Shown: in pieces, positions 14,775 to 46,045 of the stretch
Layout of the letters: every line of letters begins with the position of its first letter
How positions within the stretch are numbered: the first letter of the stretch is position 1
Assembly (NCBI RefSeq): GCF_055900595.2
Contig: NZ_CM148325.1
Reading direction: 5' to 3' (one strand)
Length of the DNA stretch: 64,000 nt
The notes under the pieces: model-generated
What the model saw: only the letters and a program-made list of their open reading frames with translations
The model's database searches: none
Told to the model about the DNA's origin: nothing
Translations under genes and position numbers: made by a program

Positions 14775-14775
14775 A

Positions 14776-16733: not shown

Positions 16734-17197
16734 CAGGACGCTCCTTGTTGAAACAGGGTGGTAAGTTCTTCCGCAGTCGGCTGGAAGGTGTTAATGCGGC
16801 CCGTTGCCTCGCCGTCGTTGATGCTGCACTCAAAACTGCCGAAGCGTTCATCTTGCATCAGCAGTTTGACGGTAATGGTCAGCGTCTGGCCTGCGGGCAG
16901 AATGCCAGCGGCGCAAAGCAATTCACGCGCGCCCAGTACCATCCCTAACTCAATACTGTTTTTGCCCTGCTGGTGGCGATGCCAGCCAGACCAGACGCCG
17001 ACGGTTTGCGCCATCAGTTCAAGGGCAAACCAGCCAGGGAGATTGCCGTCCGGGTCGAGAAACGGTGCCAGTACACCACTGGGCGAAACCGTCACGCGGC
17101 ACACGGCGCTGTCATCGCTGACGCTCACCACTTCTTCCAGCAGCAACATGGGCGCATCGTGGGGCAGATAAGCGCCGGGTGATAAATAGTGGCTCAC
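16733..17197 (-). CDS. apeP: hot-dog fold dehydratase subunit (ApeP-like)
   Basis: 154 aa; GTG start at 17197 overlapping the stop of the upstream KS gene; call rests on size and cluster position. Confidence 0.65.
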   Translation of the reverse strand: MSHYLSPGAYLPHDAPMLLLEEVVSVSDDSAVCRVTVSPSGVLAPFLDPDGNLPGWFALELMAQTVGVWSGWHRHQQGKNSIELGMVLGARELLCAAGILPAGQTLTITVKLLMQDERFGSFECSINDGEATGRINTFQPTAEELTTLFQQGAS

Positions 17198-18363
17198 GAA
17201 ACCCTCCCGAGCAGAATGCTGGCGTTATTGCCGCCAAAGGCGAAAGAATTGGACAGGATCACCGGACGTGCCAGCGGCTGTGGTTTTTCGATAATGCCGC
17301 ACGGTGGCAGCGTGGGATCGCGTGGCGACAGGCTGAAGTCCTGAGCGGGCAGCGGTAAATCACGCTCTAAGATCAACGTGCTAATTGCCGCCTCGGTAAT
17401 GCCCGCCGCGCCCAGCGTGTGTCCGGTCAAATGTTTGGTGGAGCTGCACGGTACGCGTTCGCCAAACAGGGCGTTAACCACCATTGATTCAATCTGGTCG
17501 TTGAGTTGTGTGGCGGTGCCGTGCAGGTTGATATAGCCCACCTCATCCGGCGTAAGCTGCGCATCGTTCAGCGCCTGGTTAATAGCGCGGATCGCCCCTT
17601 CGCCCTGCGGATGCGGGGCCGAAATATGATAAGCGTCGCTTGATTCACCAACGCCCAGTAACGCGATGGGCTGCGGTTCACGGGTCAGCAGCATTAGCCC
17701 CGCGCCTTCGCCAATGGTGATGCCCGCACGGTCACGACCGAACGGCTGACATAAGGTGGGCGACAGCGATTCGAGGCTGTGAAAACCGTTAATCGGCATC
17801 CGGCTCAGAGTGTCTGCGCCACCCACAATGGCGGCATCGACCAGCCCCGCTTCGATAAGCCTGCGCCCGCTGATCATCGCTCTGGCGCTGGAAGAGCAGG
17901 CGGTTGAAAGAGTATATGCCGGGCCGTCGAGCGCCAGCCAGTGGCTGAGAAAACGCGACGGATCGCCGAGTTCTTGTTGTGCATAGTGCCATGTGGTGCT
18001 TGGCTGCCCGTGGGTGCGCAGGTTAACGTGCGTGTCGCCTTCATGCAGGCCGGAGGTGCTGGTGCCAAGCACAATCGCGATGCGCTCGCGGCCATATTTT
18101 GCGATGGCGTCATCAACCTGCAGCTGGATCTGCGCCAGCGCCGCCAGCAGGATCTGATTGTTGCGCGAGCGGTGCGCAGCGAATTTTTCCGGGATAAGCG
18201 GAAGCTCGCCATCCACGCCAGCCAGGACCGCCTGCGGATGCCCCTGCAACCAGCCTGCGCGTGGGCGCATTCCGGGAGCAACACCGCGAGTCAGGTTGGC
18301 TGCGATCTCATCAAGATTATTTCCCAGGGCGTTGATCATGCCAACGGCGGAAATATAAATCAT
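17194..18363 (-). CDS. apeO: beta-ketoacyl-ACP synthase (ApeO-like)
   Basis: Active-site Cys in LSTACSSSA, His motifs LHGTATQ and GHTLGAAG. Start is either GTG 18372 (track) or ATG 18363. Confidence 0.8.
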   Translation of the reverse strand: MIYISAVGMINALGNNLDEIAANLTRGVAPGMRPRAGWLQGHPQAVLAGVDGELPLIPEKFAAHRSRNNQILLAALAQIQLQVDDAIAKYGRERIAIVLGTSTSGLHEGDTHVNLRTHGQPSTTWHYAQQELGDPSRFLSHWLALDGPAYTLSTACSSSARAMISGRRLIEAGLVDAAIVGGADTLSRMPINGFHSLESLSPTLCQPFGRDRAGITIGEGAGLMLLTREPQPIALLGVGESSDAYHISAPHPQGEGAIRAINQALNDAQLTPDEVGYINLHGTATQLNDQIESMVVNALFGERVPCSSTKHLTGHTLGAAGITEAAISTLILERDLPLPAQDFSLSPRDPTLPPCGIIEKPQPLARPVILSNSFAFGGNNASILLGRVS

Positions 18364-18364
18364 A

Positions 18365-18949
18365 TTAGTCACCTAAGTATTGAATGGTGATGTGGTATTT
18401 AAAGACATGCTGCTCAATGCTGATTGGCACGCGTTTTCCTTTGCGATTCAAATAGGTGATTTCCGTGACCAGTTTGCCGCTGGCGTTACGCAGTTCGCGT
18501 TTGTCACCGTTGTCACGAAGTGTCCATCCTGCGGGAAGTTGCGGTTGCCAGGCGCTAATCGGCCAGTGGCTGAGCATTACGTCAGCCAGCACCTGACTTG
18601 CTGGCGGCAACTGTGGGACGACGATGGATTGCTCGGCGCGTAGCCCTTGCGCATCGTAGGTCACCAGAAACAGACGAATGCCGACTGATGACAGTCCGGC
18701 AAGGGTGATTTTCTGGTCGTCGGCATTAAGCATCACCAACAGCGACTGGGTTTTGCCGTTGAAGCTGCCAGTCAACAGTTGTTGGGAATTGACGGCGGGT
18801 GAAATCCCCGGCGCAGGCAGCGTGATGCGTGTGCCAGGTTGCAGCCACGCCTGCGGGCGGCCTTCCTGTTCCGGTTGCGAGTGGCTACAGCCGGTGAGGA
18901 TAAGCGTAGCGGTCAGGGCGAGCGCCCGCCAGAAGGTGGGTTTGATCAT
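18365..18949 (-). CDS. apeN: DUF3261-like outer-membrane lipoprotein (ApeN-like)
   Basis: 194 aa; signal peptide with lipobox LTGC; ATGA overlap with the MMPL gene stop. Confidence 0.7.
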   Translation of the reverse strand: MIKPTFWRALALTATLILTGCSHSQPEQEGRPQAWLQPGTRITLPAPGISPAVNSQQLLTGSFNGKTQSLLVMLNADDQKITLAGLSSVGIRLFLVTYDAQGLRAEQSIVVPQLPPASQVLADVMLSHWPISAWQPQLPAGWTLRDNGDKRELRNASGKLVTEITYLNRKGKRVPISIEQHVFKYHITIQYLGD

Positions 18950-21261
18950 TTTTTTGTTCTCTTTTTATCGGGCATAGCCAGCGGCGAAAGCAGGAAGGCG
19001 GTGAAAATACCGCTCACCAGCACAATGCCAAAACTGCTGATGGCCTGAGTGGCGCTGAATACCAGCATTCCCAGCGTCAGCAAGGTGGTGAGCATTGCCA
19101 GCGTGATCGCCAGTAGGGAAGTTAACGGTGTACCGCGCGGATTACTGAAAAACAGCGTGTAGTTGATGCCGATGCCAAGCACCAGCACCAGCGCCAGCAG
19201 CGAAAAGAGATTCACCGCCTGCCCGCTCATCGCCAGCACTGCCAGACCGCAGCCCAGCGAAAGCACCGAAGGCACCAGGCTGATAAGCCCTTTGCGCCAG
19301 CCAAGGCGGGCCACTGCGCCGCAGGCAATCACTGCCAGCGCCACCAGCAACAAACCGGTTAAGACGTGGCGGTAAAGTGCGAACAATTCATCAAAAGTGT
19401 TTTTGCGATCAACCCAGGCAATGCCCTGGTAATAGCTGGCTGTTTCCTGCAACAACGCGCTACTTTTAACCCCTTCAACCGGCACCAGTACGCCGCTTGC
19501 GCCGTTTTCCAGCGTCAGCCACAGCAGACGCCAGCCTTCACTGGCGGGGCTTGCCAGCCATTCATCGACCTTCACTGGCATGGCGTTGAGATCTGGTTTC
19601 ACCGCCGTCAGCCCGGCATTTTGCAGCGCTTTTGTTACCGTCGGGGCAGACGTTTTCAGCAGATGTAAATCTTCCTCCTGCCGCACCAGGGAGTTCAGCG
19701 GAATAGTGCGGTAGTTGCTGATAAGACCGTCTTTTTTCGCTTTCTCCAGCGAGGCGGTAAATGTCTCCAGCCGCCGCAATGTTTGCTGTGGCGAATCGCC
19801 GTAAACCACAAACCATTTTTGATCGACGCTTTGTCCGGTCAGGGCGGTAATGGCTTTTTCCTGCGCCAGAATATGCTGCGGCAGCGCCTGTAACTGCGAG
19901 ATATCGTCATCGACGCGCAGCATTGACATCCCCGCCAGCGAAAACAGCGCCAGCGCGACGGGCAGACCCCGCGACAGTTTTTTATTGCGCCGCCACGCCG
20001 CCAGCCAGCGCAGCATCAGCGCCATCGCCGGAACCGGACGCACCGGCAGGCCACGGCACAGCCACGGATGCCAGAACAGAACGGTCAGACAGGAGGCGCT
20101 CAACCCGACGGCGGCAAAAATCGCCATCTGGCGAATGCCGGGGAAGGGGGCGAGCATCATAATCAGATACGCCGCCACGGTGGTGAGCAGCGCCAGTAGC
20201 AAGGCATTGCGCACTTTCGCCAGGCTTTGCCACGGCGAAACGTCATTGCCGTGCACCATCCGTTCAGTGAGGTAATAGAGCGTGTAGTCAGCGGAAATGC
20301 CGATAACGCTCATGCTCATCACCAGCGTCATCAGGTGTAATTCACCGAAAATCAACAAGGTGGCGACCGTTCCCGCCAGCGCGCCAATGCCGATGGAAAT
20401 CACGCAAAGCAGCAACGGGCGTAAAGAGCGGAACACCGCCACAATCAGTAATATCACCCCCAGCAGCGTTGCCACGCCCAGGGTTGAGATATCCTGCTTC
20501 GCCTGTTGACTGGCGTAATCGCTGTAAAATACCGTGCCGCGCGAGAGCAACTGCGCCTGCGGGTAACGCGTTTTCAGATCCTTTTCCAGCGTATTCAGGG
20601 TGGTGATGAGCTGGTGGGTTTGCTGCATATCAAACGACGATCCCGCCAGTTCTCCGTGTAGCAGATACCAGTAGTTGCCCTGGGGATCCTGCGTCACCAG
20701 CCAGCCGTCCATCAGTCGTAAACGCTGACCGTTTTTCGCCATCGCCAGCTGCGAGCCGCGCATTAACATCAGCGGATCGTTTTGCAGCTCCTTGCCGCTT
20801 ACCCCGGAGAACGCAGAATAAAGCTGGGAGAGGATCCACTGCGCCTGCGCTTCACCGCCGTTTTGTAGTCGGGCGCGAGTGTCGGGGTCAATCAGGCCGT
20901 TGCGATGCTGCCAGAAAAACGCTCCCCACGCCTGCTGGCTGGCGGCATCCATTGGCCCTTTAACATCGCCGAGCGCAGCGGATTTTTGCAGCAGCGTCAG
21001 CCATTCCTGAGCGACCAGGGGATTAGCCTCTTTACCGGGGCTGACCAGCCACACCAGTTGGCGGTCCAGACGCTGCATAAAGCCGTCATTCAGCGCCGGG
21101 GGAATATCGCCCATCGCCTGTTTGGGTAACATAGCCAGCACGCTACTGTTCAGTCGTGATTGCGGCAGCAGGATCAGCAACGCCGCTGCCATGACCAGGC
21201 AGATGATCCCCCATAACAGCGCCGGGCGTTTACTGGGCGGCAAAACGTTGGCGTTCGTCAT
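18946..21261 (-). CDS. apeM: MMPL/RND-superfamily predicted exporter (ApeM-like)
   Basis: 771 aa with two clusters of TM helices separated by soluble domains. Start 21261 overlaps apeL by 32 nt; an alternative ATG at 21192 is possible. Confidence 0.75.
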   Translation of the reverse strand: MTNANVLPPSKRPALLWGIICLVMAAALLILLPQSRLNSSVLAMLPKQAMGDIPPALNDGFMQRLDRQLVWLVSPGKEANPLVAQEWLTLLQKSAALGDVKGPMDAASQQAWGAFFWQHRNGLIDPDTRARLQNGGEAQAQWILSQLYSAFSGVSGKELQNDPLMLMRGSQLAMAKNGQRLRLMDGWLVTQDPQGNYWYLLHGELAGSSFDMQQTHQLITTLNTLEKDLKTRYPQAQLLSRGTVFYSDYASQQAKQDISTLGVATLLGVILLIVAVFRSLRPLLLCVISIGIGALAGTVATLLIFGELHLMTLVMSMSVIGISADYTLYYLTERMVHGNDVSPWQSLAKVRNALLLALLTTVAAYLIMMLAPFPGIRQMAIFAAVGLSASCLTVLFWHPWLCRGLPVRPVPAMALMLRWLAAWRRNKKLSRGLPVALALFSLAGMSMLRVDDDISQLQALPQHILAQEKAITALTGQSVDQKWFVVYGDSPQQTLRRLETFTASLEKAKKDGLISNYRTIPLNSLVRQEEDLHLLKTSAPTVTKALQNAGLTAVKPDLNAMPVKVDEWLASPASEGWRLLWLTLENGASGVLVPVEGVKSSALLQETASYYQGIAWVDRKNTFDELFALYRHVLTGLLLVALAVIACGAVARLGWRKGLISLVPSVLSLGCGLAVLAMSGQAVNLFSLLALVLVLGIGINYTLFFSNPRGTPLTSLLAITLAMLTTLLTLGMLVFSATQAISSFGIVLVSGIFTAFLLSPLAMPDKKRTKK

Positions 21262-21835
21262 CGGTCAGTTGCGCTGGCGTCAGTTGATGTTGGGTAAGAG
21301 CGATATCGGTGCGATCGCCCTGTTTATCATTAAGCTGAATGCTCTCCAGATAGGTTTGCCCGGCGAGATCGATGGTATTGAAAATTTTATCCAGCGGCGT
21401 GGTGGTCGGCGTCAGGCGCAGCGTCCAGCGGCCTTCGCCTTTGTCAGCAAATTCGACGCGGAAGTTTTGTTCCAGCACTTTGCGATCGGCCTGGAACAGC
21501 GCGCGCAGCAGGTGGTTAAACTGGAACATCTGCGGGTTATTTTCTGCCGTGATGATTTGTGGCGGCTGACCGTTGATCACCTGCACCATGCGTTTATCGT
21601 CCAGTAATAGCTGCATGGGGAACGGTGAGGTTTGATCCCACAACAGCCCCTGGTCGCGGGCGATCAACATCTGCCCCTGCGATCGCAGCGGTTGCGGCAG
21701 ATCTTTAATCGTCCGGGTTTGATCGAAATGGGCGCGGATCACCGGCTGTTCGGTAAAGCGTTGCTGAAGATCGTCCAGGGTCAGGGCGCTCACAAACGGG
21801 CTAATCAGCAGCGCCAGCAGCGGTAAAAATTTCAT
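21230..21835 (-). CDS. apeL: LolA-like outer-membrane lipoprotein carrier protein (ApeL-like)
   Basis: 201 aa; cleavable signal peptide (MKFLPLLALLISPFVSA); LolA-like size. Confidence 0.7.
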   Translation of the reverse strand: MKFLPLLALLISPFVSALTLDDLQQRFTEQPVIRAHFDQTRTIKDLPQPLRSQGQMLIARDQGLLWDQTSPFPMQLLLDDKRMVQVINGQPPQIITAENNPQMFQFNHLLRALFQADRKVLEQNFRVEFADKGEGRWTLRLTPTTTPLDKIFNTIDLAGQTYLESIQLNDKQGDRTDIALTQHQLTPAQLTDDERQRFAAQ

Positions 21836-22254
21836 GGTTTGACTCCCATGCGTTCAAACAGAATATCGGGGCTGACAAAGCACAGTTCGCGGCTTTGCTC
21901 GTCGACCGCGACCTGAATGGTGTATCCGGTGGTGGCGCGTTTGCCCGTTTCGGCATCGAAAATCTGATAGCCAATTCGCAGGCGGTTTTCGAACTCTTCG
22001 ATATGCGCACGCACGCGGATGCGTTGCTCAAAGGTGAGGGCGTGGCGATATTTCACCCGCGCATCGACCACTGGCCACAAATAACCCGACTCTTTCATCT
22101 GCCGATAGCCGTAATTGAACTGGTTGAGCAGCGCCTCGCGGGCCACTTCAAAGTAGCGAAAATAGTTACCGTGCCAGGCCACGCCCATCATATCGACGTC
22201 GTGAAATGGAATGATCAGCTCGACTTCAGCGGTAAATCGGGGATCGTTAAGCAC
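21832..22254 (-). CDS. apeK: 4HBT/YbgC-type hot-dog thioesterase (ApeK-like)
   Basis: 140 aa; HDVDMMGVAWHGNYFRYFE thioesterase motif; GTG start. Confidence 0.75.
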   Translation of the reverse strand: MLNDPRFTAEVELIIPFHDVDMMGVAWHGNYFRYFEVAREALLNQFNYGYRQMKESGYLWPVVDARVKYRHALTFEQRIRVRAHIEEFENRLRIGYQIFDAETGKRATTGYTIQVAVDEQSRELCFVSPDILFERMGVKP

Positions 22255-22257
22255 CCT

Positions 22258-23934
22258 TTACTCCTTGTCCTGGACTTCCGGCAGTTGCCAGAAATCGAAA
22301 AAATTAAACCAGTCGAGGGGCGACTGGAGCGCGTGATGTTCCAGACGCGCGGCGTAATGATCGATAGCGTTTTGCAGCGCCTGCTGGCGTTCGCCACGCG
22401 GCAACAGCAGCGGGTCGGCAAAGGTTTCGCAGTTAATATGCAGCTTGCCGTGCTGGCGCAGGGCGAAAATCAGATTCACCGGGCAGCGCAAAATAGACGC
22501 GAGAATAAACGGCCCCTGTGGGAAGGGCGCAGGCTGGCCCATAAACGAACTCCAGCAGACGCGCCAGTCGCCGCCGCGTTGCGGGTTGATGGCGATGCGG
22601 TCACCAACAATCGCCACCCATTCGCCGTTATCCAGCTTCTCTTTTAGCAGGATGGCGGTGTCCGGGCCGATATCCGTCACCGGCATCAGGTTAATGCCTG
22701 CCTGAGGAGCCATCTCCTGCATTATCTGTTTAAAGCGTTGGGCGTTTTCGCTAAACACCAGCGCGTTAATGGTTTTGTAGCCCTGAATTTTTGCCAGCGC
22801 CCGGCACACTTCCACATCGCCAAGATGCGAGGCCAGCAGCAATTTGCCGCGCGGATCGCTGACGTTAAGTGCCGCTTCTGCGCCTGGTGCAAACAGCACA
22901 TCACGCCCGAGTTGCAGCTCGCCGCGCCAACTGGCGATTTTGTCGAGCATGGCGTTGCCGAAACGTAGAAAGTGCTGATAGCTGTTGAGTTTTGCTGCCT
23001 GTGGTTGATGCTGGCGCACACGGGCGAGCCAGTCTTGCGACGCTTTGCGCGCCCGGCTGGCGGTGAGCCAGTAGACGCCCACCACCGGATAAAGCAGCGC
23101 GGTAAACGCCGTTCTTCCCAGCAGGCGCCAGACCAGCAGCATCAGGCGCATTCCCCATAATCCTTTCACTTCGCTCTGCCGCGCCCAGTGGCTGGAAGAG
23201 TGGCGCATCAGCAGCGAAGGAATACGCGGCAACATGCCGAAAAACAGGCGCGTGTGCATGAGCGAGATGCGGACGTTATCTTTCAGGGCATCAAAGTGCG
23301 AAAGCCCGTCCAGCGGATAGGTGACGCGGGTCGGCACGAAATAGCTGGTGTTTCCCTGCCAGTAGAGGCGCACCATCACTTCGGTGTCGAAATCCATCCG
23401 CTTGCCGATGGTGGCGTGTTTTGCCAGTTGCAGCGTTGGCGCAACCGGATAAACGCGAAAGCCGCACATGCTGTCTTTCAGTTGCAGGGAGAGCGTTTCG
23501 ACCCATACCCAGATGTGGGTGACCCAGCGCCCGTACAGCCGTGAGCGGGGGATGGAGTCATCGTAAATTGGCTGGCCGGAGATCAGTGCCGCAGGGTGTT
23601 GTTCAGCGAGTGCCAGCAGTTTGGGGATATCTTCAATCGCGTGCTGACCGTCGGCATCTACCTGTACCGCATGGCTGAACCCCGCGTCTGCCGCTGCCTG
23701 TAAGCCGCGCATTACCGCCGCGCCTTTGCCTGCGTTTTCTGCCAGGCGAATTAATGTCACGCCAGGCTGTTCGGCAACCAGATTATCCAGTTGCTGTTGC
23801 GTGGCGGCATCGCTGCCGTCATCCACCACAATACAGGGCAGATTAAATGGCTTAAGACGCGCCAGCACGCCCGGCATCATTGCGCCGTGGTTGTAGCAGG
23901 GGATCAACACGCAGGGAGAAAAGTTTACCGACAT
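22258..23934 (-). CDS. apeJ: family-2 glycosyltransferase fused to a C-terminal acyltransferase-like domain (ApeJ-like)
   Basis: 558 aa; N-terminal GT-A fold signature (CYNHG...VVDDGSDA), longer C-terminal domain. Confidence 0.7.
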   Translation of the reverse strand: MSVNFSPCVLIPCYNHGAMMPGVLARLKPFNLPCIVVDDGSDAATQQQLDNLVAEQPGVTLIRLAENAGKGAAVMRGLQAAADAGFSHAVQVDADGQHAIEDIPKLLALAEQHPAALISGQPIYDDSIPRSRLYGRWVTHIWVWVETLSLQLKDSMCGFRVYPVAPTLQLAKHATIGKRMDFDTEVMVRLYWQGNTSYFVPTRVTYPLDGLSHFDALKDNVRISLMHTRLFFGMLPRIPSLLMRHSSSHWARQSEVKGLWGMRLMLLVWRLLGRTAFTALLYPVVGVYWLTASRARKASQDWLARVRQHQPQAAKLNSYQHFLRFGNAMLDKIASWRGELQLGRDVLFAPGAEAALNVSDPRGKLLLASHLGDVEVCRALAKIQGYKTINALVFSENAQRFKQIMQEMAPQAGINLMPVTDIGPDTAILLKEKLDNGEWVAIVGDRIAINPQRGGDWRVCWSSFMGQPAPFPQGPFILASILRCPVNLIFALRQHGKLHINCETFADPLLLPRGERQQALQNAIDHYAARLEHHALQSPLDWFNFFDFWQLPEVQDKE

Positions 23935-24278
23935 AGGCGGATCTTCCCGCTACTGGCGGTGTGGCGGGCGTCACCGTCGTGACGCTGATAACTAAAGCTC
24001 AGAATCTGGCGTTCTTCCTGCCAGCTAAGCGTGAGTGTGACGCGGTTATCCGGCAGCAATGGAGCCTGGAATTTGATGTTCTGAATGGAGTGAAAACGCC
24101 AACCGGGCGCGAGCAGGGCAAGCGCGTAACTCATCGCCCAGTCGATTTGCGCCACGCCAGGGAGTAATGGTTGTACGGCAAAATGACCGCGAAACCAGAA
24201 CAGATCTGCCCTGAGATGCAAAACAATCTCAAGGTGATTCACTTGTGCCTGATGGCGCTCGATTTCATGGGGCTTCAT
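23925..24278 (-). CDS. apeI: FabZ-like 3-hydroxyacyl-ACP dehydratase (ApeI-like)
   Basis: Hot-dog dehydratase motif FRGHFAVQPLLPGV. ATG at 24278 preferred over the track GTG at 24308, which would overlap apeH by 44 nt. Confidence 0.75.
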   Translation of the reverse strand: MKPHEIERHQAQVNHLEIVLHLRADLFWFRGHFAVQPLLPGVAQIDWAMSYALALLAPGWRFHSIQNIKFQAPLLPDNRVTLTLSWQEERQILSFSYQRHDGDARHTASSGKIRLCR

Positions 24279-25626
24279 GAAATAACTCCTGTAATTGCGC
24301 ATAGACACGCTTGTTCATACTGTTTACTGGCATTTCATCAATAACGCGCCAGTAACGCGGAATAGCAACTGGCTCCAGCGTCGGGCGCAGTAATCGCCGC
24401 CAGGCCATTTCCTGGCTGTGCCCGCCGCCGTTTTGCCATTGCAGGCGAGCTTCGTCATCCAGCACCAGCAAAACGCCAATACTCTGACGTCCGCCGCGCG
24501 TAACGGGAACTGCCGCCGCCTCGCGAATACCGTCCAGCGCCAGCAGACGTTGTTCTACTTCCTGGAGTGAAATACGTTTTTCTTCAATCTTAACGATGCG
24601 CCCACGACGCCCCATCAGATGGAACTGACCGTCCTGGCTAAACTGCAAGAGATCATCGAGTAACAGGCCGTTATCTTCCGCTATCAGCGGTGAAAAGAGG
24701 CGAAATGCTTCACCTTCGGCCTGGAACTGCACACCTGGGAAGGGTAGCCAGCGGCGTTGCTCTTGTTCGCGGTAACGCCAGGCGATGACGCCGGTTTCCG
24801 TGCTGCCGTAGATTTCATCAGGCCAGACGCGCAGCCAGCTCGCGGTATATTGTACGTCCTGCCACGGCAGCTCACCGCCAGCAGAGAGAAGCACCTGAAC
24901 GGGCGGCGGAGAAAGCTGGGTATCCAGCCGTTTCAAAAATGCCGGGCTGCTGATGAAGATATAGCGATGCTGGTGACTCAATGCGGCAAACTGTTCGACA
25001 TACCAGAGCATGGCGGCGTGCAGCGGTAATCCCAGCGCCATTGGCAGGAAAACGCGAAAAGTCAGGCCGTACAAATGCTGCGGCAATACGGAACCGACGA
25101 CACGACATCCGGCAAGACGTGCGCCTAATCGTTCAGCCAGCAGTTCTGCTTCACGGTCCAGCAAATGAACAGGTTTAATTACCCGCTTTGGCTGCCCCGT
25201 AGAACCGGAGGTAAACAGCTCGATATAAGCGTCTGGCGCTATAGCGGCAAAGGTGAATGATTGTGTCGCGACTTGTGGGGAGCTTGCTACCAACAGCAAT
25301 GAACCTTGCCAGTTAAGTTCGCTGTCGCTAAGCACACCATCGAACAGTTCACGTTGCTCGTTAAGCTGGATGACGCGGTTATGCCCCGGAAGCACCGGTG
25401 TTTTTCCGGCGTGTAGCGTGGCGAGCAGGGCAACGATAAACAGATAGCAGTCCTCAAAGCACAGCGCCCAGCGTTCACCTGGTTGTTGCTGTAAACGGCA
25501 GATAAGTTGCGAGACATCGTGACGCAAATCGCCCAGCGTCCAGGTGCTTTCGTCCAGCCACGCAATGGGCGTGTCATCAGGGCGTGGCGCAGTCAGCCAG
25601 CGTGCAAGCGGTAAGGTCTGCTTCAT
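24265..25626 (-). CDS. apeH: AMP-dependent acyl/aryl ligase (adenylate-forming; ApeH-like)
   Basis: Adenylation P-loop FTSGSTGQPKRV. ATG at 25624..25626 forms an ATGA overlap with the apeG stop; the track start 25665 is an extension. Confidence 0.8.
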   Translation of the reverse strand: MKQTLPLARWLTAPRPDDTPIAWLDESTWTLGDLRHDVSQLICRLQQQPGERWALCFEDCYLFIVALLATLHAGKTPVLPGHNRVIQLNEQRELFDGVLSDSELNWQGSLLLVASSPQVATQSFTFAAIAPDAYIELFTSGSTGQPKRVIKPVHLLDREAELLAERLGARLAGCRVVGSVLPQHLYGLTFRVFLPMALGLPLHAAMLWYVEQFAALSHQHRYIFISSPAFLKRLDTQLSPPPVQVLLSAGGELPWQDVQYTASWLRVWPDEIYGSTETGVIAWRYREQEQRRWLPFPGVQFQAEGEAFRLFSPLIAEDNGLLLDDLLQFSQDGQFHLMGRRGRIVKIEEKRISLQEVEQRLLALDGIREAAAVPVTRGGRQSIGVLLVLDDEARLQWQNGGGHSQEMAWRRLLRPTLEPVAIPRYWRVIDEMPVNSMNKRVYAQLQELFHEAP

Positions 25627-26204
25627 GAGCGATCTCTTTTCATCACCTGACGGCGCACCAGCCATTCACCAGCCATTAACGTCCCCATCAACAAATAAGC
25701 AATCATGCCGTTCCAGGCAGTCCATAACGACATATCGCCATGCAGCGCGGTAAAGAGGGCAATTCCGCCGTTGATGATGAAAAAGCCGCACCAGATTTGC
25801 GTGACGTGGCGGGTATAGCGCACGCCCTTTTCCGGGAGGTCTGGCTCCTGCAAACGCGCCAGCCGCTCAACAATTGGCATTGCCGACCACAGCGAACCGC
25901 CAAAAACCGCCAGCATTACCGCGTTAACCACTACCGGGTAAAACAGCAGTAGCTGGTGCGTTTTCAACAGAAAGCTGGCGACACACAAGGCGATACCCAC
26001 GACAGCGACGATTTGTGTGACGGCTTGTAGCGGCTCGGCCTGGCAACGAGTCTGGCGCAGGCGCAATAAAAGCAGCAGCGCCATCAGCGGCAACAGCCAG
26101 TGCAGGCCGTTATGTGCCAAACCAAGCCAAATCACAAACGGCCAGGCGAGCAGTAATAATCCGGTCAGCAGTTTAATAATCGGTAGCGAGCGAATGCCCG
26201 ACAT
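25623..26204 (-). CDS. apeG: polytopic inner-membrane protein of unknown function (ApeG-like)
   Basis: 193 aa, about five hydrophobic helices; ATG 26202..26204. Confidence 0.65.
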   Translation of the reverse strand: MSGIRSLPIIKLLTGLLLLAWPFVIWLGLAHNGLHWLLPLMALLLLLRLRQTRCQAEPLQAVTQIVAVVGIALCVASFLLKTHQLLLFYPVVVNAVMLAVFGGSLWSAMPIVERLARLQEPDLPEKGVRYTRHVTQIWCGFFIINGGIALFTALHGDMSLWTAWNGMIAYLLMGTLMAGEWLVRRQVMKRDRS

Positions 26205-26208
26205 CAGA

Positions 26209-26460
26209 TCAGGCTTCTTGTAGCAGGCGTTCTACGGCCTCTACGACATCCTGGACTGTACGCACTGCTTTAAACTCTTCCGGCTTGATTTTCTTACCGG
26301 TTTTCTTTTGCAGATGCACAATCATGTCAACGGCGTCGATGCTGTCCAGTTCCAGATCTTCGTACAGGCGCGCTTCAGGTTTGATGTCCTGCGGATCGAT
26401 TTCAAACAGCTTAACCAGCAGAGCTGAGACTTCCTGATAGACGGTTTGTTGTTCTGTCAT
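26209..26460 (-). CDS. apeF: acyl carrier protein (ApeF-like)
   Basis: Pantetheine attachment motif LELDSIDAVDM. ATG at 26460 (MTEQQ...) or the track GTG at 26475. Confidence 0.8.
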   Translation of the reverse strand: MTEQQTVYQEVSALLVKLFEIDPQDIKPEARLYEDLELDSIDAVDMIVHLQKKTGKKIKPEEFKAVRTVQDVVEAVERLLQEA

Positions 26461-26471
26461 GATGGCTTTCC

Positions 26472-26729
26472 TCACGCACGTTGTGCAGCAATAAAAGAGG
26501 CCAGAGTGGCGACAGAGAAAAAGTGCTGACGCATCTCTTCACTTTCCGCAGAAAGTACAACGCCATATTCATTTTTTACTGCCAGCCCCAGTTCCAGGGC
26601 ATCGATGGAATCCAGCCCTAAACCGTCGCCGAACAGCGGCGCATCGGTCTCGATATCATCAGGAGTCAACTCGTCCAGATTGAGGGTGCTGATGATGAGG
26701 TTTTTAATTTCCAGATAAAGCGCTTGCAT
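26472..26729 (-). CDS. apeE: acyl carrier protein (ApeE-like)
   Basis: 85 aa; LGLDSIDALEL motif; ATG 26727..26729. Confidence 0.8.
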   Translation of the reverse strand: MQALYLEIKNLIISTLNLDELTPDDIETDAPLFGDGLGLDSIDALELGLAVKNEYGVVLSAESEEMRQHFFSVATLASFIAAQRA

Positions 26730-27525
26730 TATTTATTCCTGAGAGAGGTAAACAACCTTGTTGTAATTGAAGCAAAAGATGCCGGTTTAACTGCCTTGCT
26801 GCCAGCGCCGGTTCTTGTGAAGTTGCAACGTAAAATTTATTGATTTCAACCCGATCATGGACTTCAACCGTAAAAAACGGCCTGGCAGGTGGAACGTCAT
26901 ACCATTTACTTTGTTTATCCAGCAGATGCTCGCTACAGCCGATCGTCACGATGCGTAAATCGCTGGCACAGCGCACGGCAATATTCGCCGCCCCGCGCTG
27001 CAGCGTCATTTTTTCACCGGGCTTCGTTCGCGTGCCTTCGGGGAAAATCAAGATAGTGTCGCCCTGTGCCAGTCGCTGTTGGCAGCGGGGTAACAGGGTT
27101 TCAGCTTCGCTGTTGATTAAATAATCTGCCGCCCGCACAACGCCGCCAAGAAAAGGATTTTTTAACAGCGCGCTTTTCACCAGGCAGTCAGTTTCTGGCA
27201 TGACTGACGCCAGCAGTACGTAATCGATAAGCGTGGGATGATTAGCTACGACGAGGCAACCGCGTTCCTGACGTAAAATTTCAGCGCCATCAATACGATA
27301 ATCCAGCACGCCAAGCCCTTTCGCGACAGTTAAAAACAGGCGAAAACTGGCGGCAATGCTGCGACGCGCCAAACGACGGCGGCGGGAAGTATCCCACACC
27401 AAAACTAACAATATGTTAAACCACACGACAGAAAGCAGCAGGCCGCCGAGACCAAACAGGGCAAAACACAACCCGGTCATAACCAGTCGCCATGTCCATT
27501 CCAGGCGTGACATCAGCTTACTCAT
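26704..27525 (-). CDS. apeD: PlsC-like lysophospholipid acyltransferase (ApeD-like)
   Basis: 273 aa; N-terminal TM anchor; HX4D acyltransferase motif NHPTLID; ATGA overlap with the apeC stop. Confidence 0.75.
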   Translation of the reverse strand: MSKLMSRLEWTWRLVMTGLCFALFGLGGLLLSVVWFNILLVLVWDTSRRRRLARRSIAASFRLFLTVAKGLGVLDYRIDGAEILRQERGCLVVANHPTLIDYVLLASVMPETDCLVKSALLKNPFLGGVVRAADYLINSEAETLLPRCQQRLAQGDTILIFPEGTRTKPGEKMTLQRGAANIAVRCASDLRIVTIGCSEHLLDKQSKWYDVPPARPFFTVEVHDRVEINKFYVATSQEPALAARQLNRHLLLQLQQGCLPLSGINNASALSGN

Positions 27526-28244
27526 CTACGGCTCCAGCGCCACTGTACGCGCTCACCAGGAAGTGAAAAAGCATCTGAATTTTGTAAATAGTGCTGTAAA
27601 AACAACATGCTTTGCGGCAGTGTTGTTTCATTGCCCGCAATGGCTGGCTGTGTTTCACATTGCCACTCATCGCCAGCTTCAATCACCAGCGCAACAGCAT
27701 ATGGCCAGGTCGGCATTTCTGCTGGGAGCTGCGGATGATAGAACTCAGGTAGAAAGCCATCAAAATCGACCATCAACACGCGCTGGTATCCCGCTTGTAA
27801 CAGGCTAAGCACTTCACACAAACCTTGCTGGAAAGTGTCGCGACCAGCCGAAAGCGATGAGGAAACGATCGGTTGTTTGGCCGCAATGGTCAGGTTACCC
27901 ACGGAAGAGTTGTGTACGGAGAGCGCGAAGTCCGTCGGAGAGAGCGCCTGTTCGGTTGCCAGTGCATGAACAATGCGGTAATTGCGCTCCAGCTCGCCAT
28001 GACGACTGGTATACAAAACGGCGTCTGGCTGATGGTGGCGTAGCATTGCCAGACCGCACTCCACGGCCAGTTTGCTGCCAGAACTGAGACGGCGGGCGGT
28101 CATCATTGGCAGTTCACTTAATTTTGCCAACGGTGCGGCAGGGTCAACCGCCCACGGCTGGCGCGACCATGCTTGCCATTGCTGGGCTTCGCTAAGTCCA
28201 GGCGCCAGTGCCTTCCAGTCGGTAATATTTAATGTAAATTTCAT
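27522..28244 (-). CDS. apeC: truncated KS-like protein lacking the active-site Cys motif; chain-length-factor-like partner (ApeC-like)
   Basis: About 240 aa with no TACSS-type motif. ATG at 28244 (MKFTLNI...) preferred over the track TTG at 28268. Confidence 0.6.
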   Translation of the reverse strand: MKFTLNITDWKALAPGLSEAQQWQAWSRQPWAVDPAAPLAKLSELPMMTARRLSSGSKLAVECGLAMLRHHQPDAVLYTSRHGELERNYRIVHALATEQALSPTDFALSVHNSSVGNLTIAAKQPIVSSSLSAGRDTFQQGLCEVLSLLQAGYQRVLMVDFDGFLPEFYHPQLPAEMPTWPYAVALVIEAGDEWQCETQPAIAGNETTLPQSMLFLQHYLQNSDAFSLPGERVQWRWSRR

Positions 28245-28284
28245 CAACGCGCGCCCGCGGTAAACCAAAATTATTAAGTGACGA

Positions 28285-29343
28285 TTATTTCTTTTGGCAT
28301 ATCAATAATGTATGCCCAACGCCTAAATTATCGTGGCGCTCTGCTACCTGAAATCCTGCTTTATTCAGATAGTCGTAAAATTTCTCTGCGCTATAGAAAC
28401 GGCTGTTACCGTTTGCCATGCAGGTAAAATAAAGTGAGGACGCGTTCAGGCTAAATGATGCTGCTTCAAACCGCTGCGCATCCCAGAACAACTCCATGAT
28501 GCAAACTTTTGCGCCAGGCTTCATTACGCTGGCGATTTTGCTGAGTATGCTAATTATTTGTTCGGGTGAAAAACAGTCTAAAAATTGGCTCATCCACCAG
28601 ATATCAGCCTCGCCCGGTAATGGGGCATCGCTTAGCATATCCACCGCATGGAAATCTATGCGATCAGAAAAACCTGCATTCGCGATATTTTCTTTCGCTA
28701 GTACGATTTGTTGTGGCAGATCTAATAACGTCACGGCGATGTTTTCATTGTATTTGCAGCAACGCAAAGCCCACTTACCCGTATTGCCGCCTACATCGTA
28801 CAATGTTGTGGGGTTGTTGGCGAATACATAAGGCAGTGCGGCGTTAAATGCGCCATCTGAATAGTAATGATCAAACGCAAACCAGCTTTCACGAGCGGCA
28901 TCTGGTAATTGTGAAAGTGCGGGATATATCGTCGACCAGTCGCCAAATACTTTTAACCCGGACGGTTTTCCTTCATTGAGTGAATCGGCGAGGAAGAAGA
29001 GCCCCTGATAGCAGACATCCTGGGTGAAATCCATATTCACGCGAGTCATAGTGTCATGCAGGAGGTAATGACCGATTTTCGCCAGGTAATACATTCCCTC
29101 TTTACAGGTAATAATTCGCCCGCTTAAGCCCATATCTAACAGAACGCTGGCCGCATATTCGTTGATATGGCTATGTTCGGTGATATCAGCCAGCGTTGCG
29201 CCATGTTTGCCTTGCCGATCCAGATATGAAAGTACACCCGCATTACGTAGGCAGAGAGCTGTTTGAAAAAGCATGGGGGCAAAGGCAATGCGTTGAGCTT
29301 CGGTAATCGCATCCAGTGCGCTAAGAGAATCCTGTTCGTACAT
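28285..29343 (-). CDS. apeB: SAM-dependent methyltransferase, probably O-methyltransferase (ApeB-like)
   Basis: SAM-binding motif LYDVGGNTG; ATG at 29343 (MYEQ...) or the track GTG at 29352. Confidence 0.75.
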   Translation of the reverse strand: MYEQDSLSALDAITEAQRIAFAPMLFQTALCLRNAGVLSYLDRQGKHGATLADITEHSHINEYAASVLLDMGLSGRIITCKEGMYYLAKIGHYLLHDTMTRVNMDFTQDVCYQGLFFLADSLNEGKPSGLKVFGDWSTIYPALSQLPDAARESWFAFDHYYSDGAFNAALPYVFANNPTTLYDVGGNTGKWALRCCKYNENIAVTLLDLPQQIVLAKENIANAGFSDRIDFHAVDMLSDAPLPGEADIWWMSQFLDCFSPEQIISILSKIASVMKPGAKVCIMELFWDAQRFEAASFSLNASSLYFTCMANGNSRFYSAEKFYDYLNKAGFQVAERHDNLGVGHTLLICQKK

Positions 29344-29411
29344 GTTGGGCACAACCTGTTAAGAGGGAATTAAATTATTATCGGACCGAAGCGGCCCGAC
29401 TTTAGGGGAAA

Positions 29412-29801
29412 TTACAAATCTGCGCCAGCCGACAAATTCAGTTGAATATCTTTGTCGAGATTGCGGACCCAGCGATTATAGTTTTTATGAATTTGTCCGC
29501 CTGATGCTTGCAGGTTCTGACTATTTTCATAATTGATATCGTAGCTGGATGCCGTGTAGTTAATGCGAATTTCGGCTGAATGATCGCGTGACTGTTGACG
29601 TGCTTTAATTACGCCTTGTCCGGCTTCGGACATAATCCATTTGCGTTCAACGCCAGCTTTCAGAATCGCTTTTTTCACTTGTTCCTGGGTATGACCAGCG
29701 CTGACGGTTGAGTGAACCTGATCAATTGGCGCAGTACGCGCGCAACCCGCTAAAGCACCCACAACAGCAATAGCCGCAAACCATTTCATGTAATGTCTCA
29801 T
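29412..29801 (-). CDS. small lipoprotein of unknown function at the island edge
   Basis: 129 aa; signal peptide and lipobox (AVVGALAGC); start ATG at 29801 or 29789; candidate hairpin terminator just downstream. Confidence 0.55.
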   Translation of the reverse strand: MRHYMKWFAAIAVVGALAGCARTAPIDQVHSTVSAGHTQEQVKKAILKAGVERKWIMSEAGQGVIKARQQSRDHSAEIRINYTASSYDINYENSQNLQASGGQIHKNYNRWVRNLDKDIQLNLSAGADL

Positions 29802-30130
29802 TAGAATCCCATTAAAGTATTGTTTTTACGAGTAAAGCAAGATTTAACTGTAATTGCTGGCATCACTATTCTTTATTTAGCGAAAAAATTACTTGTGAGA
29901 TAAGTCAGTAAGTGCACATCAGAGTAAAAATTTCTGAAATGACTAAATTACTGCCAGCGGGGACCAACTATAAGTGAGTGAGAAAAATGAGGCAATAAAA
30001 ATAACAGATTGTTATCAGTGCATTCTTTGAGAGGGATTTAATCGCTATTCGGCGTTTATATATATTTGACTTAAGGAATGGTTTTTATAAATTAATTGTC
30101 TGAATAATGTTTCTTCATTTCCTCAAATCA
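29802..30130 (-). promoter_or_regulatory. AT-rich intergenic region, candidate promoter/regulatory region for the island
   Basis: About 330 bp of markedly AT-rich, stop-dense sequence upstream of the minus-strand island genes; no specific sites identified. Confidence 0.3.
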
Positions 30131-30160
30131 AATGGCCACTGTTAGATAAACGGTGGCCAT
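30131..30160 (-). terminator. perfect 9-bp inverted repeat 3' of yhhT; possible terminator or binding site
   Basis: AATGGCCAC-N12-GTGGCCATT, 20 bp past the yhhT stop; only a weak U-run follows on the minus strand. Confidence 0.3.
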
Positions 30161-30180
30161 TGCCTGCTCAGGAGGTGCTA

Positions 30181-31230
30181 TTAACCCGGTAACCGACTTT
30201 TCGGTCTGCCCGGCCCCAGTAAGATCGCCAGTTTGCTACCGCCTTTGGTGGTTTCCATCCAGATTTTACACACGCTGGTTAATGGTACCGAAAGTAGCAT
30301 CCCTACCGGGCCGAGCAGCCATCCCCAAATTAACAATGAAAGAAATACCACCATGGTGGACATCCCCAGGCGATGGCCCATCATCCGTGGTTCTAAAATA
30401 TTGCCGATGACCATATGGACCACTAAAAACAATGCGCCGACCAGAATACATTCGTAAACGCCATTAAACAGCAGCACCTGAATCATTGGCGGTACGGCGG
30501 AAATTACCGCGCCGATATTGGGCACGTAGTTGAGCAAAAACGCCAGTACTGCCCACATCAGCGCAAACTGTACGCCCATTAGCGCCAGCCCCAGCCAGAC
30601 GATTACGCCTGTCCATAAACTTAGCAGTGTCTTCAATGCAAGATAGTGTGAAACACCTTTTAAGGCGCGGTGTAGTCCGGCGATGTGAATCTGTGGATTA
30701 TTCAACGCAAAACGCATTTTGTAGGGGACGTGGCGTACTTCAAACAGCATGAAAACTACGGTCATCACCAGCAAAAGCACGCTCGCCATTGCCCCGGAAA
30801 GCCCGGTCATTAGCGCCGTGGTGAAGGTAACCACTTTTTCCGAGTCCATCCGCTGCAGCATTCGCTCCGGCGACATATGCAAATTAAGAAAAGGCAACAT
30901 CTCCTGCAATTTAAAAAGTTTGCGCGTCAGCTCCTTATTAAACTTCGGCAGCATAGAGATGAATTCGTTAAACGATGCCGCCAGTACGCCGACCAGCGCA
31001 GTAAGCGCAATCAGCATCACCACGACCACAATTGTAATGGCAACGGGACGCTGAACACCGCGACGAATAAACCAGGTGACCAGTGGGTTGAGGACGATGG
31101 CAAAAAACAGCGCCAGTAACAGCTGCACAATGATATCTGCCGCTGCGTGAATGCCCGCGAGGATCACTACCAGCGAGGCCAGCTTGAGCAGAATGTGCAT
31201 GCCCGTTTTATCGGGTTGAGGGGTTTCCAT
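30181..31230 (-). CDS. yhhT: AI-2E family transporter YhhT
   Basis: In-frame ATG at 31228..31230 gives 349 aa (METPQPDKTG...); polytopic membrane protein. The track ORF is a 27-codon extension. Confidence 0.85.
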   Translation of the reverse strand: METPQPDKTGMHILLKLASLVVILAGIHAAADIIVQLLLALFFAIVLNPLVTWFIRRGVQRPVAITIVVVVMLIALTALVGVLAASFNEFISMLPKFNKELTRKLFKLQEMLPFLNLHMSPERMLQRMDSEKVVTFTTALMTGLSGAMASVLLLVMTVVFMLFEVRHVPYKMRFALNNPQIHIAGLHRALKGVSHYLALKTLLSLWTGVIVWLGLALMGVQFALMWAVLAFLLNYVPNIGAVISAVPPMIQVLLFNGVYECILVGALFLVVHMVIGNILEPRMMGHRLGMSTMVVFLSLLIWGWLLGPVGMLLSVPLTSVCKIWMETTKGGSKLAILLGPGRPKSRLPG

Positions 31231-31361
31231 TGGGGCTTCCTTGTGACTTTTTGTATTAAGTGTAGCGGGAGTCACGCCAGCAATATTCTGATTCTTACTG
31301 CTGATTTTCACGTCAGCACGTGGTAAAAATGAAACACTGTTGTAAAAATGTGGTGATCCTC

Positions 31362-45622: not shown

Positions 45623-46045
45623 GGGAAACCCGTGTAAATCACAAAAGTGGAACCAGTGTAGCGAAATAATTTAATCGGAGGCTTTCTCTTTTTTATTTCT
45701 TTTGGCAGGTGATTAATTTTTTAACAGCAATAATTACAAATTAAAAACATTAGAGAATGAAAAATGTCCAGCATAATCCCCTGAATGGTAGTGAATTATT
45801 CCGCCCTTTGTACCGTTATTTTATGCTGACAACGGCGCTTTTTTCTGTTTATCTATCAACAAATTCAGAATATTATCTGTTCTTAATCGACTGAAAAATA
45901 GGGATTTTAATCGCTATTATCACAAAACACTGCGCTAAACCCTTAATCAGACAGGCAAAAACAGTGCAGTATAAAAAAAGTACAGTCTGATTTGTTAACA
46001 CATAAAAACAAAGCAACACAACATCACGAATGGGGATTTTTGACT

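Follow-up and report, generated by a model that had tools for sequence, protein, structure and literature searches.

The aryl-polyene (APE) cluster whose product has been demonstrated is APE_Ec of Escherichia coli CFT073 (apeA-apeR, c1204-c1186; Johnston et al. 2021, PMC8253772), and the demonstration holds for this homologue only. In that strain ApeA is the lipoprotein c1204; deletion of apeA leaves the mature APE lipid no longer formed, while the mutant retains its pigmentation (PMC8253772). The other close relative is O-island 138, or S-loop 225, of O157:H7 (De Lay & Cronan 2006, as cited in PMC8253772; also PMC9205054). Its genes ECs_4324-4341, located between yhhT and acpT, are assigned to the APE cluster (PMC9205054), and O-island 138 genes were found to be higher in an rpoS mutant (PMC2907692). 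Literature searches on the names of this island and its locus tags for H-NS or transcription-start data yielded no more than an RpoS microarray and mentions in pangenome work; in the papers searched, no yhhT terminator, ape promoter block or hairpin after apeA was described. Regulation of APE synthesis is thus far poorly described, and the elements treated below, namely a promoter candidate, a conserved hairpin behind apeA and a putative yhhT terminator, offer direct targets for reporter fusions and mutations in O157 strains such as Sakai and EDL933 and in other carriers, an ST69 strain among them.

In this work, we present a comparative sequence analysis of a locus within a window of 64,000 nucleotides (the whole stretch of DNA analysed; RefSeq assembly GCF_055900595.2, contig NZ_CM148325.1), which is 100% identical to strain Z0117EC0005. 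We are confident that a chromosomal operon for APE biosynthesis, apeA-apeR with acpT behind it, has its 5' end in this region. The gene order of the window agrees with Table 1 of PMC8253772, and this, together with the published assignment of ECs_4324-4341, is why the cluster is named APE here. Pfam and NCBIfam matches and the RefSeq annotation of the identical genome show the APE gene set: ApeA, methyltransferase, KS/CLF, LPLAT acyltransferase, tandem ACPs, a COG4648 membrane protein and acyl-ACP ligase, as well as dehydratases (of the ApeI and ApeP families), GT2, thioesterase, LolA-like, MMPL, DUF3261, KS and KR proteins. The order runs from ApeA through the methyltransferase, chain-length factor, acyltransferase, two acyl carrier proteins, membrane protein and AMP-ligase up to a ketosynthase and acpT. 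The locus is where an already known pigment-lipid cluster of E. coli begins; it is ordinary and not new biology, and a specialist will find nothing here that is surprising.

All features described here lie on the minus strand. The gene yhhT (30181..31230) codes for an AI-2E family transporter (Pfam AI-2E_transport, 1e-84, and RefSeq annotation of the 100%-identical genome); RefSeq places its start at 31230, a mechanical ORF with a GTG start reaches 31311, and the stop codon occupies 30181-30183. The product of apeB (28285..29343; Pfam Methyltransf_2, NCBIfam and RefSeq) is an O-methyltransferase nearest to the FlxJ family, its match to NCBIfam FlxJ_fam_MTase (1e-142, 475 bits) lying under the 560-bit curated cutoff. 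Both RefSeq and the profile match support the ATG at 29343 as its start, the mechanical ORF beginning with GTG at 29352. At the far end, the start codon of acpT (14187..14774) follows the apeR stop (14776-14778) by 1 nt, which makes acpT the probable final cistron of the ape operon.

Alignment to K-12 gave clear boundaries. The two sequences part at the yhhT stop codon (about 30184) and are homologous again from 14790, so the four elements which a sequence-only reading had singled out at this place (a lipoprotein gene, an imperfect hairpin, an AT-rich region and a palindrome beside yhhT) all lie in DNA that K-12 lacks. As seen from the alignment breakpoints and gene content, the missing DNA (14791..30183) comprises apeA through apeR, the putative yhhT terminator and the promoter region. 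That reading had also called the place an island edge. The description is right as far as absence from K-12 is concerned; the borders themselves, however, do not look like those of an island. No tRNA gene was found within the window, no direct repeats flank 14790 and 30184, and RefSeq annotates no mobility gene inside the island. The adjacency of yhhT and apeA is common to more than 10 genera. K-12 itself carries a scar, having retained 16 nt of the apeR end (the last 4 codons and the stop), and the K-12-type deletion junction is identical in three unrelated strains. None of this is the picture of recent horizontal acquisition. Because of the apeR remnant, the identical junction, the linkage over more than 10 genera and the lack of tRNA genes and repeats, the event is read as a deletion and not an insertion: the comparison indicates that the locus is ancestral and that K-12-type strains lost it by a single fixed deletion. 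With this deletion the putative yhhT terminator was lost, and acpT came to lie immediately after yhhT. The K-12 junction spans 54 nt, and the filler of about 40 nt between yhhT and acpT in K-12 gave no significant match in the island or the terminator region.

The lipoprotein gene reported at 29412..29801 is indeed a minus-strand ORF of 129 aa, beginning MRHYMKWFAAIAVVGALAGC followed by ARTAP, with lipobox LAGC, Cys20 and Ala at position +2. RefSeq begins apeA at the second ATG and gives 125 aa; it is the start yielding 129 aa, however, that 23 homologues from many genera share, and the Shine-Dalgarno sequence in front of it, GGGAG/GGGA, is itself conserved. Judged by a positive n-region, a hydrophobic h-region and a lipobox of the form [LVI][ASTVI][GAS]C, the protein has a lipoprotein signal, and the 23 homologues show conservation of L17, of C20 and, in at least 90% of sequences, of G19. 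By the +2 rule, Ala predicts Lol-dependent sorting of ApeA to the outer membrane. The protein matches no Pfam family, and its NCBIfam lipoprotein matches are sub-threshold only. An AlphaFold model (pLDDT 81.7) found weak PDB matches to KA1 domains, Flpp3 and BamC, all with E >1e-3 and TM 0.4-0.5; they tell nothing about the function of ApeA.

Between yhhT and apeA lies a 379-bp intergenic region (29802..30180, GC 0.34) which would hold the ape promoter and leader. The AT-rich part noticed before (29802..30130) has GC 0.31, that is 69% A+T over 329 bp, against 0.53 for the window, and belongs to the lowest 0.2% of 329-bp windows. Its proposed role as the promoter region of the cluster is supported by a sigma-70-like promoter with counterparts in other genera. 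This candidate (29967..29995) consists of a -35 hexamer TTGCCT (29995..29990), a 17-nt spacer (16-18 nt was accepted) and a -10 hexamer TATAGT (29972..29967), agreeing with the consensus at 9 of 12 positions. It is the sole minus-strand promoter-like site in a scan of 29000-30600; the scan of the region found 4 sites, against 3.3 expected by chance. The homologous block TTGATA-17-TATACT, with variants TTGATG and TATAGT, recurs in seven Citrobacter/Klebsiella indica loci and in K. michiganensis amid otherwise unalignable DNA, and the block is invariant among the window, Sakai and Escherichia sp. E1V33. Neither the Enterobacter/Lelliottia group nor C. amalonaticus showed the block. As the only minus-strand match, with a block conserved over three genera and invariant within Escherichia, TTGCCT-17-TATAGT is most likely the ape promoter. 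The increase of O-island 138 genes in the rpoS mutant is compatible with their dependence on sigma-70.

From this promoter, transcription is predicted to start near 29960, which would give a leader of about 160 nt. Ahead of the apeA ATG a conserved block CGTAAAAACAATACTTTAAT is found together with the Shine-Dalgarno GGGA (29810..29807), the two covering 29807..29830; in Citrobacter and Klebsiella the block is kept as CGTATAAACAATACTTTGATAGGGAGTT. The intergenic region as a whole is mostly unalignable between genera, with a mean column identity of 39%. In the window it also contains an ATAACA-N3-TGTTAT repeat. A riboswitch or thermometer in the leader was considered and discarded, since folding of 29960-29780 gave z 0.14 and no unusual structure. 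Small ORFs in the AT-rich DNA were likewise dismissed, being only chance ORFs of 20-27 aa. A permissive Rfam scan of 28000-32000 matched no family.

The palindrome adjoins yhhT, as had been reported, and starts 19 nt past its stop codon. The 9-nt arms AATGGCCAC (30131-30139) and GTGGCCATT (30153-30161) are confirmed; the spacer between them is 13 nt and not 12, and the element ends at 30161. It is better described by arms of 13 nt, 92% complementary, around a 5-nt loop. In RNA the hairpin 30161..30131 has 9 bp, a C/A mismatch and 3 further bp closed by the loop UAUCU, with a folding energy of -16.3 kcal/mol (z -4.25). Its tail UUGAUUUGA (30130..30122), read with the last stem base (30131), gives UUUGAUUUG, an interrupted tract of 6 U in 9. 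A simple terminator consensus scan called neither this hairpin nor the one behind apeA. In most of 35 yhhT-linked loci from other genera the yhhT stop is followed, at a distance of no more than about 75 nt, by a hairpin and then a T-run, in unrelated sequence. The homologous hairpin of Escherichia sp. E1V33 forms 13 uninterrupted bp, one of them a U-G wobble that pairs only in yhhT-sense RNA. Given the energy and z-score, the recurring hairpin and T-run, and the E1V33 wobble, the element (30122..30161) is most likely the intrinsic, Rho-independent terminator of yhhT.

The second hairpin lies between apeA and apeB. It had been placed at about 29376..29400 with a U-rich tail: an imperfect stem-loop does exist there, at 29400..29380 (two G-U pairs), reading GUCGGGCCG-CUU-CGGUCCGAU, but its tail AUAAUAAUUUAAUU (29379..29368, so that the feature spans 29368..29400) is A/U-rich and holds no true U tract. 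The fold has -14.3 kcal/mol and z -4.4, and none of 200 shuffled sequences did as well. Across 82 loci the corresponding segment has a median z of -3.07, with z < -2 in 82% of them against 8.5% of upstream control windows. In the aligned helix 94.8% of cells are paired and five of the nine pairs vary in a compensatory manner; none of 500 shuffles equalled this. We thus observe a stable and conserved sense-RNA stem-loop whose position is kept across Enterobacterales. In Atlantibacter, Brenneria, Dickeya and locus L067 the stem is directly followed by 7-8 U, as in a canonical terminator; in many Enterobacteriaceae the U run is displaced by 4-6 nt. The conserved position in the 82 loci, the compensatory changes and the canonical U tract of several genera support the earlier suggestion that this could be a partial terminator for minus-strand transcripts. 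Since the E. coli version lacks a real U tract it may not terminate, and it is not classed here as a canonical terminator.

Other explanations can be weighed for each of these elements. That the palindrome acts on DNA, as a protein operator or as a recombination site at the boundary of a mobile island, would fit its position less than 50 bp from the end of K-12 homology and its perfect 9-bp arms, which are statistically unusual. We hold this to be extremely improbable, because most other yhhT-linked loci keep the same hairpin-plus-T-run design behind yhhT in different sequence, the E1V33 change pairs only as U-G in RNA, the island has no tRNA gene, flanking direct repeat or annotated mobility gene, and the second arm recurs in the window only once, as an isolated arm (31935). 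For the hairpin behind apeA the choice is narrower. REP and stem-loop elements stabilise mRNA segments in other operons, and the stem-loop might be no terminator at all, being instead a 3' protective structure or a processing site through which the apeA part of a polycistronic mRNA is stabilised. The lack of a U tract in the E. coli tail and the displaced U runs of many Enterobacteriaceae speak for this, and a stem kept by covariation fits any role at the RNA level; textbook terminators at the same spot in several genera speak against it, and both roles have the same outcome (more apeA than apeB-R), being inseparable by sequence. We regard pure stabilisation as possible though not the favoured choice, and describe the hairpin as probably either a leaky terminator or an mRNA stabiliser acting at the RNA level. 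A bolder and unlikely idea is that this stem-loop, which keeps its position in about 80% of the APE clusters of Enterobacterales, is a regulated attenuator, with read-through depending on a protein, on a small RNA or on growth conditions. If true, it would set the amount of APE lipid relative to the ApeA lipoprotein, and a biosynthetic cluster family that ranks among the most widespread in bacteria would share a control point not described before.

The same hairpin could be taken as the end of an independent, monocistronic apeA that merely neighbours the cluster, with apeB-R under a promoter of their own, and the retained pigmentation of the CFT073 deletion mutant (PMC8253772) points the same way. 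This is nevertheless very unlikely. In 79 of 80 Enterobacterales loci, including clusters at other chromosomal sites, apeB or apeC comes next after apeA; the deletion mutant lacks the mature APE lipid (PMC8253772); apeA is co-regulated with apeB-E, as c1204 (apeA) through c1200 of CFT073 are co-induced at 37 C compared with 23 C; and from 29800 to 29000 there is no minus-strand promoter-like site, the gap between apeA and apeB being only 59-68 nt. The synteny together with the published genetics settles the membership of the lipoprotein, which had been left open, and identifies it as ApeA; the functional data come from the CFT073 copy, which lies at a different locus and shares 66% protein identity with that of the window (CFT073-type ApeA, NC101). 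Induction at 37 C as against 23 C is common among H-NS targets, and the induction of the homologous cluster gives some weight to the proposal, taken from the sequence-only reading, that the AT-rich region is chiefly an H-NS/StpA nucleation site, keeping the ape operon silent until counter-silenced. Such a role does not conflict with the presence of the promoter in the same region. The extreme A+T content fits it, as does the observation that wild-type CFT073 makes little APE, studies relying on a constitutively expressing APE+ strain. On the other side, literature searches turned up no H-NS occupancy data for this locus, the locus is ancestral and not newly acquired, and AT-richness as in H-NS-bound islands is confined to the intergenic region (GC 0.31-0.34), with a cluster body of GC 0.55, above the window mean of 0.53. 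Moreover, the spacer is AT-rich in every yhhT-linked locus compared (GC 0.30-0.43 against locus GC of 0.50-0.57), therefore composition alone is not diagnostic of H-NS. Silencing of the ape region is plausible, and we put its being the chief function of this DNA at somewhat short of an even chance.

Taken together, the region may work as follows. On the minus strand yhhT ends at 30181, and its transcript would probably be stopped by the Rho-independent terminator formed by the palindrome 30161..30131 and the U-rich stretch behind it. The AT-rich 379-bp spacer would then supply the ape promoter, most likely at 29995..29967, from which a start near 29960 would produce an unstructured leader of about 160 nt. 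The first product would be the ApeA lipoprotein, a genuine member of the cluster, with predicted outer-membrane sorting. The stem-loop 29400..29380 would act on the RNA, as a leaky terminator or a 3' stabiliser, and in either role would leave more apeA message than apeB-R message while transcription still reaches the enzyme genes. The promoter role and both terminator roles are proposed from sequence and its comparison.

Set beside the known systems, the locus shares with APE_Ec of CFT073 the gene order starting from a 129-aa ApeA, a hairpin after apeA (seen in the NC101 row) and a long AT-rich upstream spacer with a sigma-70-like promoter. It differs from APE_Ec in chromosomal site, the CFT073 cluster adjoining cdiBA and having no adjacent acpT, and in sequence, with 66% identity between the ApeA proteins, about 70% between the apeA genes at the DNA level and upstream spacers that cannot be aligned. 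With Rho-independent terminators and intra-operon attenuator or stabiliser hairpins, both hairpins described here have in common a G+C-rich sense-RNA stem close behind a stop codon, U-rich sequence downstream of the stem, and a position that is conserved while the sequence turns over. Unlike canonical terminators, the E. coli hairpin behind apeA has no canonical U tract, and that behind yhhT has an internal mismatch and an interrupted one. The closest system is O-island 138 / S-loop 225 of O157:H7 (ECs_4324-ECs_4341), which is the same locus with the same yhhT-apeA...apeR-acpT arrangement, 96.7-96.9% identical over the region discussed and distinguished from the window by allelic differences only.

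The lipoprotein gene reported from sequence alone ahead of the methyltransferase gene was verified as an ORF of 129 aa (29412..29801, minus strand), the product of which begins with MRHYMKWFAAIAVVGALAGC followed by ARTAP... and carries the lipobox LAGC. This start is the conserved one of apeA, since all homologues begin with M-K/R-x-x-x-K/R... and a conserved GGGAG lies ahead of that ATG. A 379-bp spacer (29802-30180, minus strand) separates the gene from yhhT (30181..31230, minus strand, annotation), and 59-68 nt separate it from the methyltransferase gene apeB (minus strand, end at 28285), depending on whether the latter starts at ATG 29343 (RefSeq) or GTG 29352 (mechanical ORF). The order 3' of apeA is O-methyltransferase (closest family FlxJ, 475 bits, below the 560-bit cutoff), ketosynthase chain-length factor, lysophospholipid acyltransferase, two acyl carrier proteins, membrane protein, AMP-ligase, ApeI-family dehydratase, GT2 glycosyltransferase, thioesterase, LolA-like protein, MMPL transporter, DUF3261 protein, ketosynthase, ApeP-family dehydratase, FabG2, ketosynthase and acpT. 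At 14772-14778 the apeR stop TGA (14778..14776) and the acpT start ATG (14774..14772) are only 1 nt apart, which suggests that acpT is the final cistron of the ape operon in strains carrying the cluster.

Membership of the lipoprotein gene in this aryl polyene (APE) cluster, previously left undecided, is now settled by synteny, a CFT073 mutant and co-induction. Scanning one genome per species for ApeA relatives gave 80 loci, in 79 of which apeB (or apeC where apeB is missing) is located directly 3' of apeA. The same synteny holds in the second E. coli cluster type, that of CFT073 and NC101, which adjoins cdiBA at a different chromosomal site and encodes an ApeA 66% identical to the window protein. 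Deletion of apeA in CFT073 left the pigment in place, while mature APE lipid was not made (PMC8253772), and in this strain expression of c1204 rises together with that of c1203-c1200 at 37 °C relative to 23 °C. ApeA matched no Pfam family; its AlphaFold model (pLDDT 81.7) displays a beta-alpha-beta4-alpha domain, for which PDB comparison returned weak matches only. The canine urinary isolate Eco_23-3511 is a natural apeA knockout, with IS1B inserted within the gene (positions 1560-2714 of its locus, L004) and two annotated pseudogene halves. Clusters of Raoultella, Pluralibacter, Cedecea, Erwinia and some Enterobacter and Citrobacter (compared loci L031, L032, L034, L049, L050, L052, L053, L043, L055, L058-L060, L073, L075 and L079) are missing apeB and have a 150-470-bp gap between apeA and apeC.

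The hairpin after apeA (29400..29380) folds as minus-strand RNA with -14.3 kcal/mol (z -4.4), and none of 200 shuffles was equally stable. In the 32 Enterobacteriaceae sequences used for covariation, the helix GUCGGGCCG/CGGYCCGAU is paired in 94.8% of cells, with both-side changes in five of nine pairs; 0/500 shuffles reached the observed values, and pairing fell to 20-49% when the 3' partners were shifted by 1-3 columns. G-U pairs make the structure specific for the sense strand. Beyond this set, the corresponding site holds an unrelated hairpin in Atlantibacter, Dickeya, Brenneria, Xenorhabdus, Morganella, Yersinia and others, and in several cases the stem runs directly into 7-8 U. Across 82 loci, folding of the first 60 nt past the apeA stop gave z values with a median of -3.07; z was below -2 in 82% of loci, compared with 8.5% of upstream control windows. 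The idea of a partial terminator thus gained comparative support. The E. coli tail, AUAAUAAUUUAAUU, is A/U-rich and no canonical U tract, and the hairpin was for this reason not classified as a canonical terminator. It is likely to be a leaky terminator or a 3' stabiliser, roles which sequence alone cannot separate and either of which would lift the apeA message relative to apeB-R.

Measurement confirmed the AT-rich stretch of about 330 bp: GC content of 29802-30130 is 0.31 against 0.53 for the window, placing it in the lowest 0.2% of 329-bp windows, and a comparable spacer (GC 0.30-0.43) occupies the same position in every yhhT-linked locus compared. The spacer is barely alignable across genera (mean column identity 39%) except for three blocks: the Shine-Dalgarno and start region of apeA, CGTAWAAACAATAC just upstream of it, and a -35/-10 pair, TTGCCT-17-TATAGT (29995..29967, minus strand), the conservation of which gives comparative support to the proposed promoter region. 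This pair is the sole minus-strand promoter-like match in 29000-30600, agreeing with consensus at only 9/12 positions, and the number of scan matches equals chance expectation for the region. It is identical in the window, Sakai and E1V33 with differing flanks, recurs as TTGATA-17-TATACT (variants TTGATG, TATAGT) in seven Citrobacter/K. indica loci and K. michiganensis, and was not found in the Enterobacter/Lelliottia group. From it we infer that transcription starts at about 29960, with a ~160-nt leader in which no unusual fold (z 0.14), Rfam match or credible small ORF was detected. H-NS binding to the spacer is plausible, given its composition and the thermoregulation of the CFT073 homologue. 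The candidate -35 is preceded, at a distance of 5 nt, by a perfect inverted repeat with 6-bp arms (ATAACA-N3-TGTTAT, 30001-30015, minus strand). Sakai retains both arms around another spacer, and E1V33 has one arm altered; the repeat might serve an activator or a repressor, or have arisen by chance in AT-rich DNA. Two other spots of the window are similarly AT-rich: 238-3228, its most AT-rich block (~3 kb, GC 0.30-0.35), which contains a pair of DUF4049 paralogues (ORFs 314..1573 and 1835..3457, plus strand), and 45684-46012 (GC 0.31), the panM-livK intergenic region by offset to an annotated identical genome.

The 9-bp palindrome following yhhT was found as described (arms 30131-30139 and 30153-30161), with the correction that its spacer is 13 nt, not 12; a repeat finder extends the arms to 13 nt at 92% complementarity, leaving a loop of 5 nt. 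It begins 19 nt past the yhhT stop, folds as minus-strand RNA with -16.3 kcal/mol (z -4.25; 0/200 shuffles equally stable) and exits into UUUGAUUUG. Such a symmetrical element might instead act in DNA, as an operator or recombination site, which is unlikely: in Escherichia sp. E1V33 the perfect 13-bp palindrome version includes a U-G pair valid in yhhT-sense RNA only, and in most of 35 yhhT-linked loci a hairpin and then a T-run occur no more than ~75 nt past the yhhT stop, for the most part unlike the E. coli element in sequence (Citrobacter AAAAACTACC-N6-GGTAGTTTTTATCTTTTT; Atlantibacter AATAACGCGTCAGG...CCTGGCGCGTTATTTTTTTT). An intrinsic terminator of yhhT is the best reading. The K-12 junction offers no comparable hairpin (-6.2 kcal/mol), so K-12 has lost this candidate terminator, with acpT following yhhT without an intervening hairpin and therefore probably depending on yhhT read-through.

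Alignment to K-12 places all four elements (apeA, hairpin, spacer and palindrome) in DNA absent from that strain, because homology breaks off at about 30184, the yhhT stop codon, where only the last codon and stop differ and the final residues are unchanged, and restarts at 14790. The sequence-only reading took this border for an island edge. The evidence points to an ancestral locus lost from K-12 by deletion rather than to an insertion in the window. K-12 retains the apeR stop codon and its last four codons ahead of acpT; its junction (L002 2943-2996, compared with window 14775-14790 and 30184) consists of 16 nt from the apeR end and a ~40-nt filler matching nothing in the island. Three unrelated strains without the cluster share these 54 nt exactly, pointing to a single event. 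Moreover, apeA has yhhT as its immediate upstream neighbour in Citrobacter, Klebsiella, Lelliottia, Enterobacter, Leclercia, Kosakonia, Atlantibacter, Pluralibacter, Superficieibacter and Huaxiibacter, the cluster borders show no tRNA, flanking direct repeats or annotated mobility gene, and the cluster body has a GC of 0.55. In line with the deletion reading, the title of De Lay and Cronan (2006; cited in PMC8253772) states that AcpT of K-12 was orphaned by a rearrangement.

The window version of the cluster occurs in 569 of 5426 complete E. coli genomes and CFT073-type apeA alone in another 256 records, with at most two apeA matches per genome. In NC101, a 515-bp spacer (L003 4360-4874) separates apeA from the divergent cdiB/cdiA contact-dependent inhibition locus, and contains a near-consensus TTGACA-18-TATATT 88 nt before apeA. 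What was noticed in the sequence is real but ordinary, being the control region at the 5' end of a known and published gene cluster. Three minor points are new: a hairpin conserved behind apeA, a promoter block shared across genera, and the absence from K-12 of the probable yhhT terminator, lost there. The locus is the APE cluster apeA-apeR as known from CFT073, where apeA is listed as 'lipoprotein, c1204' (PMC8253772). Strain Z0117EC0005 matches the window with 100% identity; O157:H7 matches it with 96.7-96.9% across the four-element region, and Sakai O157:H7 has the identical arrangement, ECs_4323 (yhhT) and ECs_4324 (lipoprotein) through ECs_4341, then acpT, a locus named O-island 138 in PMC2907692 and of which ECs_4324-4341 were placed in an APE cluster by PMC9205054.
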